DNA of 49,646 nucleotides from a virus. Its lineage: Duplodnaviria; Heunggongvirae; Uroviricota; Caudoviricetes. Location of the stretch: IMG/VR virus record IMGVR_UViG_2740892231_000005. One strand, 5' to 3'. Under the pieces are notes generated by a model. The model did not search any database. It worked only from the letters and a program-made list of their open reading frames with translations, and was not told the origin of the DNA. Below, in pieces: positions 4,923-48,779 of the stretch (position 1 is its first letter; each line of letters starts with the position of its first letter). The position numbers and the translations under genes were made by a program.

Positions 4923-6039
4923 CCTCTAACCCCGCATACTGGCAATTTATATTTCTCTCTCTGGCGACCTGCGTCTCTCCAACTACAGTAAATACAGGAC
5001 TTGATATTTCTAATCTTTTAGCCCCGGCATTTTTTAAACGTTGAATAATTTCATCTGGATTTATATCTCTTCCCATAACCGAACGTTGCCATTGTTTATA
5101 CTCATCAAGAGCTTTCTCAACCTCACTTTGAATTAACGTTGTTCTGTTTTTGTCCGATGAGTTAATCCAGTATTTAATTATTATATCGTATTCAATGCTC
5201 TCTGGTTTCTTAACAAGAACTTTATCTGTGAATGGTCGAATATTAGTTGCAGAGAGAACGCTATTTATCTGCTCTAATAGTTCATCAGAAGGTATATCCC
5301 CGTTCTCTAACAAAGAACGGATTTCTACAGTTCCGGGCGATGGTGTATATACATTCACATCTTTTATATTCTGATTGGCTGTTCTTGTCCAATATTTATA
5401 AGAATCCTCCGGCCCTGCTGTAGACAGTTTTTCCGGCGACAGTTTTATTCTTTCAGCATAATTATCATCTGACTCTGTATCAGCACCAGAATTAGATGTT
5501 GTTAGATTCCTTACGCTGGAAACATACGGCAACGGAGTCACCAACTCGTTTATTTGCCCAGGTAAAAATCCATTCCCCGATAAGCCAGGTATAACAGCAT
5601 ATCCTGAGACTGTACCAACTGTTTTCCCAGCTGGTATTTCCAACAAAACATCTGTTTGGAAAATAACACTATTTCCAGTTGAAATTTGAGTGCCAGCAGG
5701 TATTGTATATATCCCCGATAATTTTGTTGACAGATTAAACTCAAATGTAGTCAAGGCAGATTGAGCTTCCAGCCTAGGCGTATCCGTCAGATAGCCTATA
5801 TGGTCGAGATATTCACCCCCACCATATGTAAGAAGGTTTTGTTTTGCAGAAAAATCGATAGCTTTTCTTTGCTGTATAATAATCTCACACAATGACAAGA
5901 TGAATAATCTACGTGGATCAGCAGGTGCTAATGTTTCACCTGTTATACTCTCAAAAGCCCTGATTGAACGAGTTGTTATATCAGTCGGGTTAGAATCTGC
6001 GAAAGTAATATCTGGCAAACCACCGCGCGGCAACGTCAT
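4915..6039 (-). CDS. Baseplate protein J-like (P2 gpJ / Mu gp47 family)
   Basis: 374 aa; position between the W-like and I-like genes; baseplate_J-like sequence features. Confidence 0.75.
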   Translation of the reverse strand: MTLPRGGLPDITFADSNPTDITTRSIRAFESITGETLAPADPRRLFILSLCEIIIQQRKAIDFSAKQNLLTYGGGEYLDHIGYLTDTPRLEAQSALTTFEFNLSTKLSGIYTIPAGTQISTGNSVIFQTDVLLEIPAGKTVGTVSGYAVIPGLSGNGFLPGQINELVTPLPYVSSVRNLTTSNSGADTESDDNYAERIKLSPEKLSTAGPEDSYKYWTRTANQNIKDVNVYTPSPGTVEIRSLLENGDIPSDELLEQINSVLSATNIRPFTDKVLVKKPESIEYDIIIKYWINSSDKNRTTLIQSEVEKALDEYKQWQRSVMGRDINPDEIIQRLKNAGAKRLEISSPVFTVVGETQVARERNINCQYAGLEDG

Positions 6040-17936: not shown

Positions 17937-19479
17937 TTACCTCAGAAACAGGAGGCGTAATCAGCCCCAACTCACGGCGAGCATTCTCTTCTCTGCCACA
18001 AATTTGTGCGGTTTCTTCCCAGTTAAGACCTGACATTTCAGCCGCTTCCTTTTCACGGGTAGAGAATGTTTCCTCAACACGCAGTTTTGCAGCTTTGACT
18101 TCTTTAAGGGGATCTAATTGGCCTTGTGATGGGCCATACCATTGAGCGCCACTCCATGCAGCGCGATATTCAGGCCCATAAAAAAAACCAGGGGCAATAA
18201 CACGACCTTTAGCAACGGCTTCGGCCAACCATTCCTCATAGATCGGTTGGCAAAATGACTGAACCATCCAGTCACGTCGCATACGGAACATTTTCCAGGC
18301 TTCAAGTAATGCGGCCCTGCTTGCGCTATAACTTGCTGTAAAATGCTTTACCAAGAGTTCGTAAGGGAGTTCTAAAGCAGCCCCAATTTGACGGCATATG
18401 GCGACAACAAAACCATCAAATGCCGTATTTGGTCGCCCGGGATTTGCTGTATCTATCGACTCACCTTCACCCAAACTTACTATGGAGCCATTCCCCATTT
18501 CTTGGGTGTTATCATCATGGTTATCGATCTGCTCGTACTGAGGGATACCCGATTCACCGACTGGTCCATCAGGAGCGTCTGTTTTAATAAAGACAGTAAA
18601 CATCCCTGACACAACCGCAGCAACCAATTCAGCATCGGTGTATCGTCCTAACTGCTTCAATGCTTCAATAACAGGAGCAAGGACAGGAACGCCACGACGT
18701 TGCCCAGGCCTTTCAAAATCCTGCATGACATGCAGAATATTTCTTCTTCCTGTTTTACTCCCATATGCGGGAATACGTTCCCACTTGCGGGTTACAAAAC
18801 CAGAAGTCCCGGCTGGGTGATGTTTTGCAACCCAGTACGCCACAGGCTCGCTAAATTCACCAACCTCTACGCCACCGTAAAGATTTGGTATAAAACGATC
18901 CTCTGGATTGCAAACACGATCACCTTCAATTAAATAGACGCACAAATCATATATAACACCCTTACGCTTAATAACTGGTAGCGCAGCAAATATATCGCCA
19001 GATGTTAACGCAGATATTTGGACCAATGATTGCAATTGTCCAAAAGTACACATTCTTGATGCATCACAATTTGGAGAATCAGCCCATAATCTAAACTCAC
19101 GCTCAACATGCTTTTCCCATGCTCGCGCTTCTTCCTGCGTCATCCCCAAGAAATCGGCATCAATGTTCGCATTTAGTTTTAAACCGGAACCAACAACGTT
19201 TGTCCTGATAGTTTTTATTGCGCCAACCGATAGCGGGTTTCCCATGAAGAGATCACGAGAACGCTCACGCAATTTATCTATATTTTTAACAATATCATCA
19301 TCAGGAGAACCAGCTTTACTAAACCAACCCCTTAATGATTTTTTATGAGTGCTTGCACCATGACGTGAATATCCAAGGTTATTAATACCTTCAAGTGCTT
19401 CTAACCGTTTTCTTGCCAAAGCTCGATTTAATGCCCTCTGAGGTGAAAACGGCGCAATAACTCGATCAAGAATATTCAT
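17905..19479 (-). CDS. Portal protein, lambda gpB family
   Basis: 524 aa; directly downstream of the terminase large subunit and gpW-like genes. Confidence 0.85.
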   Translation of the reverse strand: MNILDRVIAPFSPQRALNRALARKRLEALEGINNLGYSRHGASTHKKSLRGWFSKAGSPDDDIVKNIDKLRERSRDLFMGNPLSVGAIKTIRTNVVGSGLKLNANIDADFLGMTQEEARAWEKHVEREFRLWADSPNCDASRMCTFGQLQSLVQISALTSGDIFAALPVIKRKGVIYDLCVYLIEGDRVCNPEDRFIPNLYGGVEVGEFSEPVAYWVAKHHPAGTSGFVTRKWERIPAYGSKTGRRNILHVMQDFERPGQRRGVPVLAPVIEALKQLGRYTDAELVAAVVSGMFTVFIKTDAPDGPVGESGIPQYEQIDNHDDNTQEMGNGSIVSLGEGESIDTANPGRPNTAFDGFVVAICRQIGAALELPYELLVKHFTASYSASRAALLEAWKMFRMRRDWMVQSFCQPIYEEWLAEAVAKGRVIAPGFFYGPEYRAAWSGAQWYGPSQGQLDPLKEVKAAKLRVEETFSTREKEAAEMSGLNWEETAQICGREENARRELGLITPPVSEVNEQNMETDDA

Positions 19480-19715
19480 AAATCTCTTATCACCACTCGT
19501 TTAATTCGTGGGCCTCGGCGTATACCTGCTGATAATCTTTCTACTTCATTACGCCAGTAATCCATCTCTTTTCTGACTTCTGATAAATCCGCACGAGTTA
19601 ACTGCCGCGTACCAAATTTATATGACTGACCGCCAATAGCAATAGCGCGATATGCTTCCCGCCAGACAGATAACATCTCTCTGGCTTCAGTCAGAGAAAA
19701 TGCTTCATTGTTCAT
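19476..19715 (-). CDS. Head-tail joining protein, lambda gpW-like
   Basis: 79 aa; pattern resembles lambda W; located between terminase and portal as in lambda. Confidence 0.65.
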   Translation of the reverse strand: MNNEAFSLTEAREMLSVWREAYRAIAIGGQSYKFGTRQLTRADLSEVRKEMDYWRNEVERLSAGIRRGPRIKRVVIRDL

Positions 19716-29349: not shown

Positions 29350-29425
29350 GAGAGTGAATTGGTGGCCCCTACCGGATTTGAACCGATGACCGTGCGATTA
29401 TGAGTCGCCTGCTCTAACCACTGAG
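29350..29425 (-). tRNA. tRNA with CAU anticodon (Ile2/ileX-like, or Met)
   Basis: 76 nt; cloverleaf folds by hand (acceptor GGCCCCT/AGGGGCC, D-stem GCTC/GAGC, T-stem ATCGG/CCGGT, CCA end); one mismatch at the top of the anticodon stem. Confidence 0.8.
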
Positions 29426-29604
29426 CTAAGGGGCCATATTTGATCTGTTTGTCTGGTGTGGCGCCGCGCACGAAAATCCCAGCCAATAAATTCAGGATTT
29501 TTGGGCGCGGCGGCATATCAGACAAACATGGTTGATGCATGCGCTAATGAGAAAAGCGCATAGAATGTTGTAACTATATATTTATATAATTATAGAAATA
29601 TATA

Positions 29605-30546: not shown

Positions 30547-30865
30547 GATTAAATCCTAATGCGTCAACTATCCGCGCCAGATTGCCCCTGAAATACAGAA
30601 CAACGATGCAGATAATCAGATTTCCAATAACCACCAGCCAGTGGGATTCTTGATAAAGACCGAACACATAACGGAAGGGAACATTGGCGTATACAATGAC
30701 GTAGATATAAGCCAGAAAGGAAACAAATGGACGATGCCTGGAGTCTTTCCGTCGATAAAGCATCAGCGCCATTACTATTACTGTGCAAAGCACCGCATTA
30801 ATCAGTGCTGACGGGTCACTGCTTACCATTTGAACCCCCTCCACGTAAGCGGGAAAGCATTCCAA
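30533..30865 (-). CDS. Membrane protein, putative holin or antiholin
   Basis: 110 aa with about three hydrophobic segments between the holin and endolysin genes. Confidence 0.45.
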   Translation of the reverse strand: MECFPAYVEGVQMVSSDPSALINAVLCTVIVMALMLYRRKDSRHRPFVSFLAYIYVIVYANVPFRYVFGLYQESHWLVVIGNLIICIVVLYFRGNLARIVDALGFNHDQR

Positions 30866-31763: not shown

Positions 31764-32372
31764 TTACGGTTTTTCATCGTTTTGCTCTCCTGCGTCTCCT
31801 TTGGTGCGAATTCCAGCGGCGCGCTCGGCTTCACTTTGTTCCCAAAACCACTTGTGAAGCTCCATGAGCTTTTCGTCAATCGGTGCATATTTGCGATTAA
31901 AGTAGGCCTGAGCATCTTTCTCAGATTCGTCCGGCAATTCGCCTGGACCAAACAGTGTGTTATAAATCCATGCCAGTCCGCTTTTAGCGTCGCCAGTCGA
32001 TTGCCATTCGATAATGGCAGCCTGCATGACCAGAATGTTTTTCCCGATTAATAGGTCCAGTTCTTTGTACCTGTTGCGGATGTATGCATTCTCGCTTTGT
32101 AATTTTGCGTTGCGCTTCTCTGCGGCTTCCAGCTCAACACGCAGCTTCCCTACCGTTAGCGCAATTTCCTCGTTCTCCTGGTCACGGCGTTTTATGTATT
32201 GCTGGTTTCTTTCCCGTTCATCCAGAAGCCCCAGCACAATGTGTGGCGTTATCAAGGACTCAAATTCGGCAACAGCTTGCTCGCCTCGCTTGTAATTCTT
32301 AATCCCACCTAAATCTTTCGCGTTCTGTGCCGCCTCACGCAGTGCCTGATAGTTAATTGCTGTGCTGTTAGT
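31764..32372 (-). CDS. Coiled-coil phage protein (Ea22-like?)
   Basis: About 200 aa from MTNSTAINYQ; heptad-rich central region. Confidence 0.35.
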   Translation of the reverse strand, partial: TNSTAINYQALREAAQNAKDLGGIKNYKRGEQAVAEFESLITPHIVLGLLDERERNQQYIKRRDQENEEIALTVGKLRVELEAAEKRNAKLQSENAYIRNRYKELDLLIGKNILVMQAAIIEWQSTGDAKSGLAWIYNTLFGPGELPDESEKDAQAYFNRKYAPIDEKLMELHKWFWEQSEAERAAGIRTKGDAGEQNDEKP

Positions 32373-32712
32373 CATTCCAGGCCTCCAGCTCGTTCTGAAT
32401 CTCCTCGTCAACCTCGTCATTGGTGGCGTCTTCGTTCAGATGGTCGCGCGCCTCTTTGAGATACTGTTCACGGCGTTCGTGGTACCAGGCAGAGAACTCC
32501 GGCGACCATCCTCGATTAGCCCCCTGAAAATCTACCATCGCATTATCCTCAGCCATACGCTCGACCATGCAATCCGCGGTGGTCAGTGCAACCTCACGGA
32601 TGTACCCCCGCAGGTCACGCTTACGCCAATACGGGCTATATTTTGAGTCGCAGCGACCTTTAAATTCGACGGTCCAGCGACGGATGCAGCGTGCGTTAAG
32701 TGATTTGCTCAT
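32368..32712 (-). CDS. Hypothetical protein
   Basis: 114-aa ORF. Confidence 0.4.
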   Translation of the reverse strand: MSKSLNARCIRRWTVEFKGRCDSKYSPYWRKRDLRGYIREVALTTADCMVERMAEDNAMVDFQGANRGWSPEFSAWYHERREQYLKEARDHLNEDATNDEVDEEIQNELEAWND

Positions 32713-39320: not shown

Positions 39321-39338
39321 CACATGGAGTCTCGACAA

Positions 39339-39992
39339 ATGACTATCTCTGTAGGTATTTTCAACGGAAAAGGCGGCGTAACCAAATCAACAATTGCCCG
39401 TGCTTTAGCAGTTGCTTATGCAAAGGCTGGCTGGAATGTATGCCTGATCGATATGGATGTGCTTAACGGAACGGTAACGCGTTGGGTACAACGCAGAATG
39501 GCCAACAATATCGAACCAGCAATCGCGGCGCAGCCGTGCGGCACACCATCACAAGTCCAGAAAATCATCGAATCAGAAGTATACGACTTGGTTATCGTCG
39601 ATGGCGGTGCCTACGCATCTGAATCAGTACCGAAGCTCTCTGAATTTCTGGATATGGTTATTTTGCCAACCAGATTCTCTACCGATGACCTGGAAACCAC
39701 CGTTAACACAGCTCACGGCATCGTTAAAAAGGGTGTACCAATCAAGAAAATTTGCATGGTGTTTTCCGGCGCGGCTGAAAACGAAGCTGACTATATTGAA
39801 GCCCAAGAGTACCTGGCTAATACGCCATACTTTGTTGTCGATAAGTACATTCCCCACAAGCCAGCTCTGAGCAAAGCTCAGGATAAGGGCTTAAGCCTCA
39901 TTGAGTGCTCATACGTTGCGCCACGCAAAAAGGCAGACGACGTTATTCAGGGGATTATCAACCAGCTTGAGGCTCTGACTACTGCCGCGTAA
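39339..39992 (+). CDS. parA: ParA-family partition ATPase
   Basis: Deviant Walker A GKGGVTKST; start chosen at the second ATG with GGAG RBS (ORF track gives 39324). Confidence 0.8.
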   Translation: MTISVGIFNGKGGVTKSTIARALAVAYAKAGWNVCLIDMDVLNGTVTRWVQRRMANNIEPAIAAQPCGTPSQVQKIIESEVYDLVIVDGGAYASESVPKLSEFLDMVILPTRFSTDDLETTVNTAHGIVKKGVPIKKICMVFSGAAENEADYIEAQEYLANTPYFVVDKYIPHKPALSKAQDKGLSLIECSYVAPRKKADDVIQGIINQLEALTTAA

Positions 39993-40506: not shown

Positions 40507-40528
40507 AAAAAAGGCCCCCGAAGGGGCC
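40507..40528 (-). terminator. Intrinsic terminator hairpin (ggccccc-gaa-ggggcc) with U-run on the minus strand; possibly bidirectional
   Basis: A6 run on the plus strand 40507..40512 immediately 5' of the stem. Confidence 0.55.
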
Positions 40529-40537
40529 TAATCGCTA

Positions 40538-40660
40538 CTTGCTGCTAATGTTTATCGTCACATTCAGAGCGTTATCAGTAATCTTCCAACCCTCCCCATG
40601 TGGCGTAAACAAAGCTCCAGTAACAACGATAAAAATACACATACAGTATTTTTTCATTGT
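40538..40660 (-). CDS. Small ORF (40 aa, MKKYCMCIFIVVTGALFTPHGEGWKITDNALNVTINISSK) with signal-peptide-like N-terminus
   Basis: Hand-translated; AAGGG RBS 6 nt upstream; terminator directly downstream. Confidence 0.3.
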
Positions 40661-41054
40661 ATGGCCCTTACAGGCCGTTTCACGGCATCCCCACCGACGA
40701 AAACAACGCGAGAGCAAGCACGGCTGCTTGTGCTTGCATGTACGGCAACGGAGAATCCTCCCCTAAAGTCGGTGCCCGGGTGCGAATCGGCGGGAAGGTC
40801 CACAGGTATTTTACGATTATTTTAAGATTAGTAATAGGAAAGAAATTAAACGAAAAAACTCGTTTATTTTCACAAAATCAGTAACCTACCCACAATCTGT
40901 GAGTTTGCAGGCACAACAAGAACCACAATTTTTTGAAGCATAATAGTGGACTATTATTACCTTTTGGGTAAAATTAACTTGCTGCTTGTGCTTGCGTGGT
41001 TGTTTATACAACAACGTAATGCTGAAAGGACCGCGAATCCGATCAGCACGAAAG

Positions 41055-41082
41055 AACCGTCCTCAAAAGGACGGTTTTTTTG
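41055..41082 (+). terminator. Intrinsic terminator (aaccgtcct-caaa-aggacggtt followed by T7)
   Basis: Seen in sequence; overlaps the stop codon of the convergent 41063..41635 gene. Confidence 0.6.
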
Positions 41083-41635
41083 TTTCTCCCCCTTCCTTCC
41101 CAAATGATTCAAATGTTAATGAGAGAGAATCATTTGATATGTTCGATTTAGCGCCGTTATCGACCCAATTTCTGTATGCTTCATCACAACAGTACCTTAC
41201 GGCAGTTGGAATAACAGGAGAGCCGCCCAGAAATGAAAATCCCATTGAGCTTATGCTAATTCTTTCGAATGGCCTATTTCTCAATGCTTCAAATCCCTTG
41301 CTGTTGAAGTAACTCAGCATCAGAGGTAAAAGGTTATCCTCGTCTTGACTGATTGTTCCCGGGAAAAAGTAGTAACCATGGCGATTAAATTCGGGAATCA
41401 GTTTTTCTACCAACAACATGAAATTCATTGGGGTAATATTAAGGGCAGAGCAAGCACCAAAAAGAGCATCAACCGTTAATACAGACTGTCCGTTCTCTAT
41501 CTTTGTCCATGCGTTTGGTGTTTTTCCAGCAGCTTGAGCCAGCACTCCTTGATGCACACCTCTTTCTAGCCTAAGTTCTTTTATGATCATTAGGTGGATT
41601 GTTGAAAAACATGAGTTTTTTGACGTTTCAGTCAT
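41063..41635 (-). CDS. XRE-family HTH regulator with about 130-aa C-terminal domain of unknown function
   Basis: Start at MTETSKN; HTH (LRLERGVHQGVLAQAAGKTPNAWTKIENGQ). Confidence 0.55.
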   Translation of the reverse strand: MTETSKNSCFSTIHLMIIKELRLERGVHQGVLAQAAGKTPNAWTKIENGQSVLTVDALFGACSALNITPMNFMLLVEKLIPEFNRHGYYFFPGTISQDEDNLLPLMLSYFNSKGFEALRNRPFERISISSMGFSFLGGSPVIPTAVRYCCDEAYRNWVDNGAKSNISNDSLSLTFESFGKEGGETKKPSF

Positions 41636-41772
41636 TTTTTTATCCCCATATTGAATTTTTTCCTTGTTCCCAACTTTAACAAAACACCACAACTCAGGAT
41701 TGAGTCATTCCCTACAGGAACTATACATTCCCGTCTTTGGTATATCAAGAAAATTAAAAGCTCGGCATTCAA

Positions 41773-41789
41773 ACCCACACTATGTGGTT
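41773..41789. promoter_or_regulatory. Additional CI-type operator (cccac-actat-gtggt) in the divergent region between the XRE gene and the antirepressor operon
   Basis: Same ACCAC-N5-GTGGT palindrome as in the immunity region. Confidence 0.55.
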
Positions 41790-42081
41790 TAGTCTGTTAA
41801 AATCCGCCGTATTGACATGAATGCGTCATTGGTGGACACTTTCCGAGCCGTAGCAAAATCTACGGTCGGGATTGGCGTCCCGATTGCACAATGGCGCATA
41901 CCGCGTTAGCGGTTTTTTTATGCGTAAAGCACTGCTACACCCAAATTATGGTGGGGCGTGCGGGGGCGGAGAAATCCGCGCCGGGTTTGTCATTGTGCCG
42001 GTTACGCCAACCCTGTACGTCTCACCACCATATTGATTGGCGTCATTGGTGGTGATAGTTCCTTTAATCGGAGATATCACA

Positions 42082-42273
42082 ATGACAAACCTACCCCATG
42101 ACTATTACGTCAACCTCGTAAAGATCCTTCTCAAGAAAGCCTCATACGCCGATAAATTCCGCCTGGCTGAAATCATCGAGCGCGAAGCTATGCGCATCGC
42201 CAGCAACGATAACGCTGTTTCTGACGCAAAAATCTCCCTCGTAACCAAAGTTGTTATGGGAGGTGCAAAATGA
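42082..42273 (+). CDS. Small protein upstream of, and translationally coupled to, the antirepressor gene (icd-like position)
   Basis: 63 aa from MTNLPHDYY with GGAGA RBS; its stop overlaps the ant start (ATGA). Confidence 0.45.
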   Translation: MTNLPHDYYVNLVKILLKKASYADKFRLAEIIEREAMRIASNDNAVSDAKISLVTKVVMGGAK

Positions 42274-43421
42274 AAACGCTTCCGACCGTTAACACCCTAC
42301 AGCCTATCCTGCATAATCAGATTCCAGTAATCACAACTGAGCTACTCGCCCGCCTTTATGGAACAGAAGCAATCCGTATACAGCAAAATCACCATGAAAA
42401 TAAAACTCGGTTCATTGAGGGGAAGCACTTCTTTAAAGCTGTTGGTGATGAACTCAAAAATTTGCGACTAGTTTTAAACGAGTCACAAAATGAGGTGCAA
42501 ATTTCCCCCAAAACTCGCTCTCTCATCCTCTGGACAGAACGCGGGGCTGCACGTCACGCCAAAATGCTTGAAACTAACCAAGCGTGGGATGTGTTCGAAC
42601 GGCTGGAAGACTGCTATTTCAACCAGAACGCGCAAACGGCCGCGACCGTAACCGTCTCGCCAAACAATGCTCGTGAGGTTGTCGATACGCTCAACGCCAA
42701 ACCGATGTTTTACATTAAGGTGTGCAACAACGAGCCACTCACAACCTCAGCCGATGTTGCCCAGGCATTCAGCACCACAAACAATTCCATCGTTATGGCC
42801 ATCGATGCGTTACGCATTCCTCGCACAGCTGCGGCACGTCATTTCTTTAAAGAGCAACGACCGCTGGAAGGAAGCGACCGCGAAATAACAATCTATCGCA
42901 TGACAAAAGACGGATTTACCTTGCTCATGGAAAGTATCGACGGTCCAGGCGTGAAAGATATCAAGCTGGCCTACATTGAAGCCTTTAACGCTATCAGCAG
43001 CGTGTTAAAAACACAGTACGAGCGTGATCTGGCTAAACGACTGTACCAGGAAAAAACGATTATCCGCGCGGCAACAGAGCATAATCGGCTATTAACGGAA
43101 CCGAACTACAGGAAGGAACTAATCAAGGAGTTTGACAAGGCAACAGGGAAAACCAAAGCGGCGCTAAATCTGCCAGCAATGACTCAGGAAAATGTGATAT
43201 CAGCCTTACTTCTTGATCTGCTCAGAAACGCCAGAGCACTTATCAGCTTTGACGAAAACCTGAATCCTCAGCTCAAGCTACTACCACCGACAGGCAAAGT
43301 AGTCGACCAAGCTGATCACAACAGCATACTCAGCGTTCTGGATGCAAACCTGCCAGCCAGGACACTACAGGATCTGATAAAAACATGTGCTGATAAGCTG
43401 GCACAGAAAAGCAGACCATAA
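42270..43421 (+). CDS. Antirepressor-like protein (ORF6N/Rha-type N-terminal domains)
   Basis: 383 aa; two N-terminal segments resembling ORF6N/Rha-type antirepressor domains (PVITTELLARLYGTEAIRIQQNHHENKTRFIEGKHFF). Confidence 0.7.
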   Translation: MKTLPTVNTLQPILHNQIPVITTELLARLYGTEAIRIQQNHHENKTRFIEGKHFFKAVGDELKNLRLVLNESQNEVQISPKTRSLILWTERGAARHAKMLETNQAWDVFERLEDCYFNQNAQTAATVTVSPNNAREVVDTLNAKPMFYIKVCNNEPLTTSADVAQAFSTTNNSIVMAIDALRIPRTAAARHFFKEQRPLEGSDREITIYRMTKDGFTLLMESIDGPGVKDIKLAYIEAFNAISSVLKTQYERDLAKRLYQEKTIIRAATEHNRLLTEPNYRKELIKEFDKATGKTKAALNLPAMTQENVISALLLDLLRNARALISFDENLNPQLKLLPPTGKVVDQADHNSILSVLDANLPARTLQDLIKTCADKLAQKSRP

Positions 43422-47786: not shown

Positions 47787-48779
47787 TTAATGTTGGAGTG
47801 ATTTCCAGGTCTTTCTTAGCCTGTTATAACGCTGCTCAACGAGGGAGCGTAAATATGCAAGGTCAGCACCAGGATACATGCCATCAGCAAATTCCTGGCT
47901 AACCTCTCTAGTGATTTGATGGCGAAGTTCGGCCTCTCCCTTTTCCTGAACAAGACGCGCAGCTCTCTCCGCTGCTTTCTGTTTTGCCTTTATCTCTCTG
48001 GCCGTCTTCCTCTGACGCCATACATTCTCCATCTGCTCCTGAATAACAATACGCTTATAATCAGCCTCCGTTATCGCTTTTTTAAGCCGTTCGCTATTCT
48101 TCGCATTGAAGTAATTAAGTTTCTGGCTAACCGCACGTCTCCATGCTTGTTCAGTAATACCAACTGTTTCCAGCAGTTGATCACGAATCTCGATTTTCGC
48201 TGGCCAATACTGTTTATTCACCCGATCCCAGCGACGTTCATAATCAATAAAACCTAACTCTTTCAGTTGCGACAACGCCCTTGTACAGCGCGTTATAGAC
48301 TTGTTCCCAGCTTCGGATACGGTAGACAGGCCGCAAAAATCAGCCAACGCCTCAGCACTGGCCAGAACCCGCTTAGAAATGATGTTTACATGGTGCAAAA
48401 TCGCAGCAATCACAGCATTAATCGCCCGACGACGATGCTCGTTTATCCGGCGTTTCCGCTCTGACGGTTGATTAACGTAGAACGCAACCTCACACGTAAG
48501 ATCACGACCATTAATGCGCTGTAAAGCATCAGATAACACCAGCGGCAGCTTGTGCGTATGGTGCTTTGGAGGCTGGAACTCCGGCGACAAATTACAAACG
48601 TAAGCTGAACGTAGAGACGGCATTGGTCTATCCATATGTTCGCTCTTGCGTCCACGGAAAACCAACGTATAATGGGAGTTGTCGAGGCGCCCATGGTTAG
48701 TTGTTGGTTTTCCTTTCCGTGGATGTCGCAAGAAGCCCGCAGATTTATCTGCGGGCTTTTTGTTTCCATATCTGGTCAC
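47787..48779 (-). CDS. repA: Plasmid replication initiator, IncFII RepA1-like
   Basis: 330 aa; SITRCTRALSQLKELGFIDYERRWD resembles the recalled RepA1 segment SITRATRALTFLSELGLITYQTEYD. Confidence 0.75.
   Translation of the reverse strand: MTRYGNKKPADKSAGFLRHPRKGKPTTNHGRLDNSHYTLVFRGRKSEHMDRPMPSLRSAYVCNLSPEFQPPKHHTHKLPLVLSDALQRINGRDLTCEVAFYVNQPSERKRRINEHRRRAINAVIAAILHHVNIISKRVLASAEALADFCGLSTVSEAGNKSITRCTRALSQLKELGFIDYERRWDRVNKQYWPAKIEIRDQLLETVGITEQAWRRAVSQKLNYFNAKNSERLKKAITEADYKRIVIQEQMENVWRQRKTAREIKAKQKAAERAARLVQEKGEAELRHQITREVSQEFADGMYPGADLAYLRSLVEQRYNRLRKTWKSLQH

Follow-up and report, generated by a model that had tools for sequence, protein, structure and literature searches.

The leader of the antirepressor-like gene in the IMG/VR virus record IMGVR_UViG_2740892231_000005, a stretch of 49,646 nucleotides (nt) from a virus of the Caudoviricetes that we analysed at its full length and call the window, is very probably a secondary immunity module of the type known from immI of phages P1 and P7. 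Its parts are an IsrK/a1b1 decoy RNA, a C4 antisense RNA and C4 target sites at a small open reading frame (ORF) coupled to the antirepressor gene. The module is a genuine regulatory element, but of a well-described kind of phage immunity control whose principle has been established for P1 and P7 since 1990; it differs from that of P1 in that its protein cargo is non-homologous and the b2 target site has moved onto the start codon. We read region 41400..43400 and listed its ORFs, and scanned the whole window against Rfam at gathering thresholds; at this level the leader gave two matches, isrK and C4, adjacent in tandem on the + strand. A preliminary description of this DNA had proposed an antirepressor operon under antisense-RNA or attenuation control and resembling P1 immI, and the two Rfam families, the complementarities between them and the messenger, the P1 order of elements and the covarying pairings all bear this out. 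In a structure prediction, as it had suggested for the leader, 41847..42100 folds far better than its shuffled versions (z = -4.9). That description contained neither the antisense RNA itself nor its real target sites, and the two most informative repeats were absent from it, namely a 14-nt inverted repeat (41984..41997 / 42078..42091) and a 10-nt direct repeat, GATTGGCGTC, returned by a repeat finder at 41870..41879 and 42035..42044 (+ strand).

The 5' element of the leader, the IsrK or c4-a1b1 RNA, occupies 41847..41920 (+). Rfam isrK (RF01394) matches 41847..41919 over its whole model (positions 1-77 of 77) at 67.3 bits against a gathering score of 50, and the minimum free energy (MFE) fold agrees with the model: two hairpins (hairpin 1, 41847..41866; hairpin 2, 41867..41882) and then an intrinsic terminator with a 5-bp stem (stem-loop 41900..41913) and a run of seven U (41914..41920), which a terminator scan found as well. 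A short hairpin with a T-run had been reported earlier at 41901..41919; the feature is real, and its position is corrected by these coordinates. Hairpin 1 shows four compensatory pairs among relatives. In the loop of hairpin 2 lies a1 (UUGGCGU, 41872..41878, +), a copy of a2 and a 7-nt perfect complement of 42004..42010, while b1 (GCACAAUG, 41886..41893, +) is single-stranded 3' of this hairpin and forms an 8-nt perfect complement of 41991..41998 (CAUUGUGC of b'). The layout of c4-a1b1 is therefore present, with two hairpins, a1 in the second and b1 just 3' of it, complementary to the adjacent C4, and the element sits here upstream of an ATGA-coupled ORF and antirepressor. The c4-a1b1 model itself is passed at the homologous place by the distant relative L024 (55.2 bits), by VT2-Sakai (50.5 bits) and by P1 (51 bits). 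Since isrK and c4-a1b1 match the same place in VT2-Sakai, isrK corresponds to the a1b1 element plus its terminator.

The second element is the C4 antisense RNA at 41944..42032 (+), which Rfam RF01695 matches over its entire model (1-87 of 87) at 72.3 bits against a gathering score of 45. Its MFE structure is the consensus three-helix fold (-46.3 kcal/mol, z = -4.8 versus shuffles), consisting of a 17-bp closing stem P1 (41949..41965 / 42011..42027), a stem P2 (41966..41979) with a GAAA tetraloop of the GNRA type (GUAA in relatives) and a stem P3 (41980..42002) with a 13-nt loop. Among relatives the stem cells are 100% paired, and compensatory changes are found in stems P1 and P2. The P3 loop carries b' (GGUUUGUCAUUGUG, 41984..41997, +), a 14-nt perfect complement of 42078..42091, and the single-stranded junction carries a' (ACGCCAA, 42004..42010, +), complementary to both a1 and a2, so that the specificity allele of the window C4 reads a' ACGCCAA, b' GUCAUUGUG. 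By homology with the C4 annotated in phage P1 (48343..48419), we predict a mature RNA of 80 nt at 41950..42029; the 5' context at 41950 (AUUAU/GGUGGGG, the slash marking the predicted end) and a 3' end in ..CACC are common to the window C4 and that of P1. The ARAGORN tRNA scan of the leader did not call C4 as a tRNA. The 3' strand of stem P1 can pair alternatively in a downstream hairpin (42022..42055, +), formed by TCACCACCA (42022..42030) and TGGTGGTGA (42047..42055) with a2 in its loop. This is the hairpin (caccacca...tggtggtg) that the preliminary description had placed upstream of the ribosome binding site; it is a 9-nt perfect inverted repeat with local MFE support, followed by no U-run. 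Its GGTGGTGA is kept in most family members, in VT2-Sakai and in a Klebsiella phage, and reads GGCGGTGA in two relatives. The same overlap between the 3' strand of stem P1 and a downstream hairpin was described by Weinberg 2010.

Both C4 target sites lie downstream of the RNA, around the start of the small ORF. The a2 site (UUGGCGU, 42037..42043, +) is found in the mRNA 8 nt past the predicted 3' end of C4 and is a perfect 7-nt complement of a'. The initiation region of the small ORF (42070..42091, +) has a Shine-Dalgarno (SD) sequence GGAG at 42070..42073, and the b2 site (CACAAUGACAAACC, 42078..42091), which begins 4 nt past it, spans the ATG at 42082. The ORF itself (42082..42273, +; 63 aa, ATG to TGA), in the position of Icd and with its own SD, belongs to PHROG 7886 (function unknown; E=2e-47) and has no Pfam or NCBIfam match. 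Against phage P1 Icd no BLASTP alignment was obtained, and NCBIfam phage_ICD_like matches P1 Icd but not the window ORF; because of this lack of homology to Icd we do not name it icd. Comparative sequence evidence marks it as a real gene, given that it is conserved, that synonymous changes exceed non-synonymous ones (17/6, 23/17 and 21/18) and that even loci with a different downstream ant-type gene retain the ATGA; the 63-aa length together with the ATGA overlap persists in 12 of 13 IMG/VR relatives, down to 71% identity. The overlap of its stop with the ant start, noted earlier, is the ATGA at 42270..42273. There begins the antirepressor-like gene (42270..43421, +; 383 aa), with its own SD (GGGAGG, 42258..42263) inside the small ORF; its product has the Pfam domains ORF6N (E=3e-20) and Phage_pRha (E=4e-12) and matches multiple PHROG anti-repressor families, and BLASTP against phage P1 Ant1 gave only E>4.

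The window belongs to a family of phage-plasmids, made up of non-mobilizable plasmids (~48-49 kb) from E. coli, E. albertii and E. fergusonii as well as the Yersinia phages vB_YpM_39/41/44; its closest match is AP019710 (99.2%). The isrK-C4 core alone reaches further, with 74-80% identity to more than 260 records of Stx and lambdoid phages. To follow the pairing sites through this family we used the leaders of 17 elements, eight from plasmid or phage records and nine from IMG/VR loci found through the small ORF. In the alignment the leader backbone is almost unchanging, while the a and b sites vary, and vary together. In 17/17 leaders a1 and a2 are identical and both read as the reverse complement of a'; three alleles of the site occur (UUGGCGU, UUAGCCU and UUGGAAC). 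The b' alleles UCAUUGUG, UCAUGAUG and CCAUGGUG meet matching b2 sites (CACAAUGA, CAUCAUGA and CACCAUGA, respectively), and b1 is matching or G-U wobble-paired. Five a x b combinations occur among the 17, one allele type being UUGGAAC/CCAUGGUG (a' GUUCCAA). A pairing test on the concatenated-site alignment (6 distinct site sets, 500 shuffles, registers slid by 1-3 columns) found a1:a' and b1:b' 100% paired and a':a2 and b':b2 98.9% paired. Changes on both sides were present in 6/15 pairs of each of these two groups of pairings, 0/500 shuffles reached the covariation score, and the slid-register controls gave 21-44% pairing. Within IsrK and C4 themselves, the helices were 98.3% paired with 10 compensatory pairs. 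RNAduplex energies ranked cognate pairs best or tied against non-cognate ones; these energies are noisy on short loops owing to alternative pairings, and exact complementarity was used instead. Taken together, the covariation of the sites in the alignment indicates functional pairing and what would be distinct immunity specificities, like those of P1 versus P7. The position of b2 is less rigid than its pairing: it lies on the SD, not the ATG, in L024 and in phage P1 and on the ATG here, so the site shifts yet stays within the initiation region. Two further places in the window that resemble C4 targets were rejected as chance matches, each with ~0.1 expected by our own estimate: TTGGCGT-nn-ACAATGAC at 30684..30700 (+), antisense inside a holin-like gene beside a putative endolysin gene, and a b2-like 11-mer, CACAATGACAA, at 5888..5898 (+), opposite a - strand ORF.

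The same substitutions speak to whether the conservation of the region overlapping C4 could instead be that of a protein, either a 95-aa 'ash family protein' or an orf45-like peptide (ORFs 41891..42055 or, from TTG, 42037..42273). PGAP, the annotation pipeline behind RefSeq, does place 288-nt 'ash family protein' genes over the 3' half of C4 in relatives, and in Gifsy-1 an ORF over this region is translated and needed for coupling (PMC4825925). Among the relatives, however, the substitutions are compensatory in the RNA stems, and any reading frame is broken by indels, which measure 1-2 nt within the b' loop and 5-6 nt in the stretch from a2 to the SD. Neither the 54-aa ORF of the window nor the 95-aa version has a Pfam or NCBIfam match, and the unit conserved to 71% identity is the 63-aa ORF that starts at ATG 42082 with its own SD. 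The Gifsy-1 authors likewise found orf45 conserved in nucleotides and not in amino acids (PMC4825925). We consider a coding explanation barely credible. The 95-aa gene calls themselves (L005 1592..1879 and L009 1522..1809, equivalent to about 41990..42273 of the window) extend the 63-aa ORF upstream through the 3' half of C4, and are probably annotation errors brought about by the conservation of the RNA.

We propose the following mechanism for the module. Transcription would fire near 41847 from a promoter with its -35 element at 41812..41817, and the first ~73 nt would form the IsrK/a1b1 RNA, ending at the weak terminator and presenting a1 in a loop with b1 just 3' of it. Transcripts that read through would enter C4 with its tRNA-like three-helix fold, from which, by analogy with phage P1, RNase P would excise a stable RNA of ~80 nt. 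The b' and a' sites of this C4 could then pair with b2 and a2 of the downstream mRNA and block initiation at the small ORF, and the antirepressor would be shut off with it, because its gene overlaps the small-ORF stop (ATGA). In P1, shut-off of ant has been reported to act through loss of translational coupling. Rho-dependent polarity is involved in the P1 shut-off. The a1 and b1 copies on the short IsrK RNA would compete for the same C4 sites, which would make IsrK a decoy able to release the mRNA, and the a and b sequences would set the immunity specificity.

Several points weigh against this interpretation. The c4-a1b1 model (RF03163) scores 41.7 bits at 41834..41886 (E=4e-9) in a permissive local search, under its gathering score of 46.7, the -10 hexamer GACACT is poor, and a consensus promoter scan did not call the leader promoter. 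The RNA species and their ends are predictions from sequence. Neither the small ORF nor Ant is homologous to its P1 counterpart, Icd or Ant1, so the downstream biology is not transferable from P1, and b2 lies on the start codon here versus on the SD in P1. The fold of the full leader (41847..42100) pairs b' with b2 in cis, so that repression might do without a C4 that is processed and acts in trans. The Gifsy-1 authors, moreover, explain IsrK by remodelling of the mRNA and not by titration of a free antisense RNA (PMC4825925).

The last two points lead to an alternative in which control by the leader is wholly in cis. The C4-like fold would never become a free RNA that acts in trans, the mRNA would sequester its own start codon through b':b2 and a':a2, and the short IsrK would open it, as in the model for Gifsy-1 isrK-orf45-anrP. 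The predicted pairing of the b' region with b2 in the MFE structure of 41847..42100 agrees with this, the Gifsy-1 data are fully explained by alternative mRNA structures plus IsrK in trans (PMC4825925), and Weinberg 2010 raised a possible cis-regulatory role for C4. Yet the score of the element is that of a full-length C4, and it shares with P1 C4 the conserved GGU cleavage context and the ...CACC 3' end; in P1 the processed RNA works in trans and determines heteroimmunity (PMC5320573; 2025 review). The multiple orthogonal a/b alleles on near-identical backbones also fit selection on specificity in trans, although cis pairing would covary too. Given the full set of C4 features, we regard control in cis alone as unlikely, and less likely than release of a C4 that acts in trans.

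The promoter assigned to the leader spans 41812..41840 (+) and consists of the -35 element TTGACA (41812..41817) and a weak -10 element, GACACT (41835..41840), separated by a spacer of 17 nt; the TTGACA had been recognised previously, with its position given as 41813..41818. The -35 TTGAC is unchanged in every relative of the alignment, including distant ones whose upstream sequence is otherwise unrelated. In L018 and L022-L024 the column of the window -10 reads TATATT, TATCTT or TAGATT, and in our own two-sequence comparison that -10 corresponds to TATAGT of the phage P1 promoter P1c4/P51b. The start of the isrK model would place the start of transcription near 41847.

A 13-mer, GCGTCATTGGTGG, occurs exactly twice in the window, at 41823..41835 (+) within the promoter spacer and upstream of the predicted transcript, and at 42040..42052 (+), where it runs from the last 4 nt of a2 through CATT into the GGTGG stem strand. 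The preliminary description had listed the two exact copies, at 41822 and 42041, and had singled them out for mutation. They could in principle be functional, as an operator pair for a DNA-binding regulator (at the promoter and as a roadblock) or as an RNA control motif: copy 1 does lie in the promoter spacer, and by our own estimates an exact pair is expected only ~0.003 times in 600 nt, and a 12/13 pair ~0.1 times. Matches with up to two mismatches are also enriched in the window (6 versus 0.96 expected), but the remaining near-matches fall inside coding regions. Comparison with relatives argues against such a function. Copy 1 reads GCGCCATTGGTGG (beginning GCGCC...), a 12/13 match, in most relatives, including the four closest (97.5-99.3% identical); the 13-mer is exact only in this window because copy 1 has one base different in those four, C at 41826 where the window has T. 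Other single-base variants are found in L013 and L021, and in L018 and L024 the spacer is replaced by unrelated sequence with the RNA module kept intact. Copy 2 varies with the a2 allele (GGCGTCAGCGGTGG, GCCTCGAATGGCGG and AACCTGACGGTGG), its 5' part changing and GGTGG being largely conserved, and a2 together with the stem strand already accounts for its parts. On this comparison with relatives we reject an operator, whether conserved or dispersed, any function of the repeat is very improbable, and the sequences point to a private coincidence, a 12/13 resemblance plus one substitution and no conserved element; what had been proposed for mutation combines the 3' end of a2 with a variable spacer and a conserved GGTGG stem strand, which together happen to resemble the promoter spacer. 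A copy with one mismatch, TCGTCATTGGTGG, is present at 32414..32426 (+), overlapping the ATG of a - strand ORF (31764..32420).

Comparison with phage P1 immI (GenBank NC_005856) shows the same order of elements as in the window: promoter, a1, b1, a weak terminator-like hairpin, C4, a2, b2, small ORF and ant. The P1 annotation lists promoters P2c4 and P1c4, the sites a1, b1, c4, a2 and b2, icd (48470..48691) and ant1 from 48688, which starts 4 nt before the icd stop, so that the small-ORF stop overlaps the ant start as ATGA in both. The sequence that leads into C4 is also alike (..CCCnAATTAT/GGTGGGGCGTG), reading ..CCCGAATTAT/GGTGGGGCGTG in P1 and ..CCCAAATTAT/GGTGGGGCGTG in the window. Both C4 RNAs are three-helix folds whose P3 loop holds b' and whose junction holds a', a2 lies at the same position a few nt past the C4 3' end, and specificity alleles exist in P1 and P7 as they do in the window family. 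In contrast, b2 covers the SD in P1 and the start codon in the window, and P1 Icd and Ant1 are unrelated to the 63-aa ORF (PHROG 7886) and to Ant (ORF6N plus pRha), such that the RNA module is common and the cargo is not. No analogue of P51a/Op51, the additional P1 promoter/operator that lies upstream of the constitutive promoter and is controlled by the primary repressor, was identified in the window, where one conserved -35/-10 pair was recognised and no operator search was made. The P1 genome, finally, is unlike the window element, a phage-plasmid of ~49 kb. In P1, RNase P cuts C4 from the operon transcript at a GGU (PMC5320573), and C4 represses icd/ant by pairing at a2/b2. RNase P excision of C4 RNAs is at the 5' end of stem P1, and the mature length is about 77 nt. 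Weinberg 2010, who describe the c4 and c4-a1b1 motifs, give the competition model of Citron & Schuster (1990), with a1/b1 as competitors. A literature search on C4 in phage-plasmids returned nothing specific.

The second set of known systems is formed by Gifsy-1 isrK-orf45-anrP and the Stx and lambdoid loci such as VT2-Sakai, which like the window have a two-hairpin isrK with a leaky terminator, then a C4-type element and an ATGA-coupled antirepressor. There, however, the coupled ORF (orf45/orf34) overlaps C4 and a2/b2 lie at ant initiation, whereas in the window a separate 63-aa gene past C4 bears b2. Work on Gifsy-1 (Hershko-Shalev 2016, PMC4825925) showed that transcription stops only partially at the IsrK terminator, that the mRNA made by read-through stays translationally silent, and that both the upstream ORF and the antirepressor are turned on by short IsrK acting in trans. 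This activation of antirepressor translation in trans agrees with the decoy role that we propose for IsrK here. For isrK RNAs, terminator read-through, Hfq binding and activation of ant in trans are known by experiment from Gifsy-1 only. Counted by position from the start, the verified Gifsy-1 pairs G28/G31-C162/C159 map to a1 (41874..41877) and a' (42004..42010), so that the region known as 'orf45' in Gifsy-1 is the place of the C4 element. The Gifsy-1 paper mentions neither c4 nor P1 (PMC4825925), and a 2025 review lists IsrK and c4 separately, as RNAs that are unrelated. The comparison suggests a new interpretation of the Gifsy-1 results, in which a C4 element is titrated or remodelled.

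The layout of phage P22 immI (Pant, arc, mnt and sar RNA), which the preliminary description had also invoked, is not matched by anything seen here. The likeness is a general one, in that antirepressor synthesis is restrained partly by a small RNA. In P22 the sar RNA is transcribed from the opposite strand as a cis-encoded antisense RNA, and the Arc and Mnt proteins are the basis of control. The RNA of the window, in contrast, is encoded on the same strand and upstream of its target, and a scan for promoter-like sites found none on the opposite strand within the leader. No P22-immI-like feature was seen in the window, where homologues of Arc and Mnt were not searched for.

A wider reading, which we offer tentatively and hold to be somewhat less than evenly balanced, joins the P1 c4/a1b1 and the Salmonella IsrK literatures, which do not cite each other. 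IsrK, known as a 'dual-function' small RNA (sRNA) of Salmonella, would be the a1b1 decoy of P1 c4, and the module would be a self-contained antisense/anti-antisense switch, in which a sponge RNA and a repressor RNA arise from one promoter and are split by a leaky terminator. Its specificity would be reprogrammable at three sites, with at least five orthogonal a x b specificities on near-identical phage-plasmid backbones, and sRNA-Xcc1 would be a further immunity RNA of the C4 type. Three points are of some value in their own right, namely the series of specificity alleles within a single lineage, the equivalence between IsrK and a1b1, and the presence of Xcc1 in the C4 position in two related loci. 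The allelic series of a and b predicts which family members are homo- or hetero-immune at this secondary immunity locus. For a widespread group of ~48-49 kb phage-plasmids of E. coli, Escherichia albertii and Yersinia, the module also provides a testable regulatory mechanism for the antirepressor operon, in a region that at present has just the label 'hypothetical protein' in those records or, in error, that of an 'ash family protein'. E. coli ATCC 25922 has this element or a near relative of it (NZ_CP009073.1, about 18,960-19,500).

The two loci with Xcc1 are L022 (1270..1500) and L023 (1240..1500), where Rfam sRNA-Xcc1 (RF02221; 76 and 70 bits) replaces C4 upstream of the same small ORF and a coupled ant-type gene. 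The L022 loop CTCTTTTGC is complementary to GCAAAAGAG on the SD and the L022 junction TTTCGAA to TTCGAAA; decoy copies lie upstream, followed by a terminator-like hairpin. All four sites differ in L023, and the complementarities are the same. By this arrangement of sites Xcc1 looks like a C4-type antisense RNA. Rfam places C4 and c4-a1b1 in clan CL00128 and lists none for Xcc1.

The gene coupled to the small ORF varies among the elements, encoding 204-402 aa in L012-L023, and in some relatives (L006 and L011) only a Rha-family C-terminal fragment is annotated. The ATGA junction and the SD (GGGAGG in most, GAGAGG in L023) are near-constant among them, which suggests that the regulatory cassette is fixed and that the antirepressor cargo behind it is exchanged as a module or decays. 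On the other side of the leader a divergent gene (41063..41635, -; 190 aa) encodes an XRE-type helix-turn-helix (HTH) regulator with the Pfam domains HTH_3 (E=7e-7) and HTH_31, annotated as helix-turn-helix/XRE in relatives, and a promoter-like site is found on the - strand at 41748..41720. The target of Ant would be a repressor of the element, possibly this divergent regulator.

Two other RNA features of the window lie outside the leader. A full-length match to the ryfA RNA family (142 bits against a gathering score of 80) is located at 40507..40803 (-), between a ParA-like partition gene (39324..39992) and the divergent HTH regulator, and it has the same place in L001, L006 and L021. A tRNA-Met (CAT) gene is present at 29360..29435 (-).

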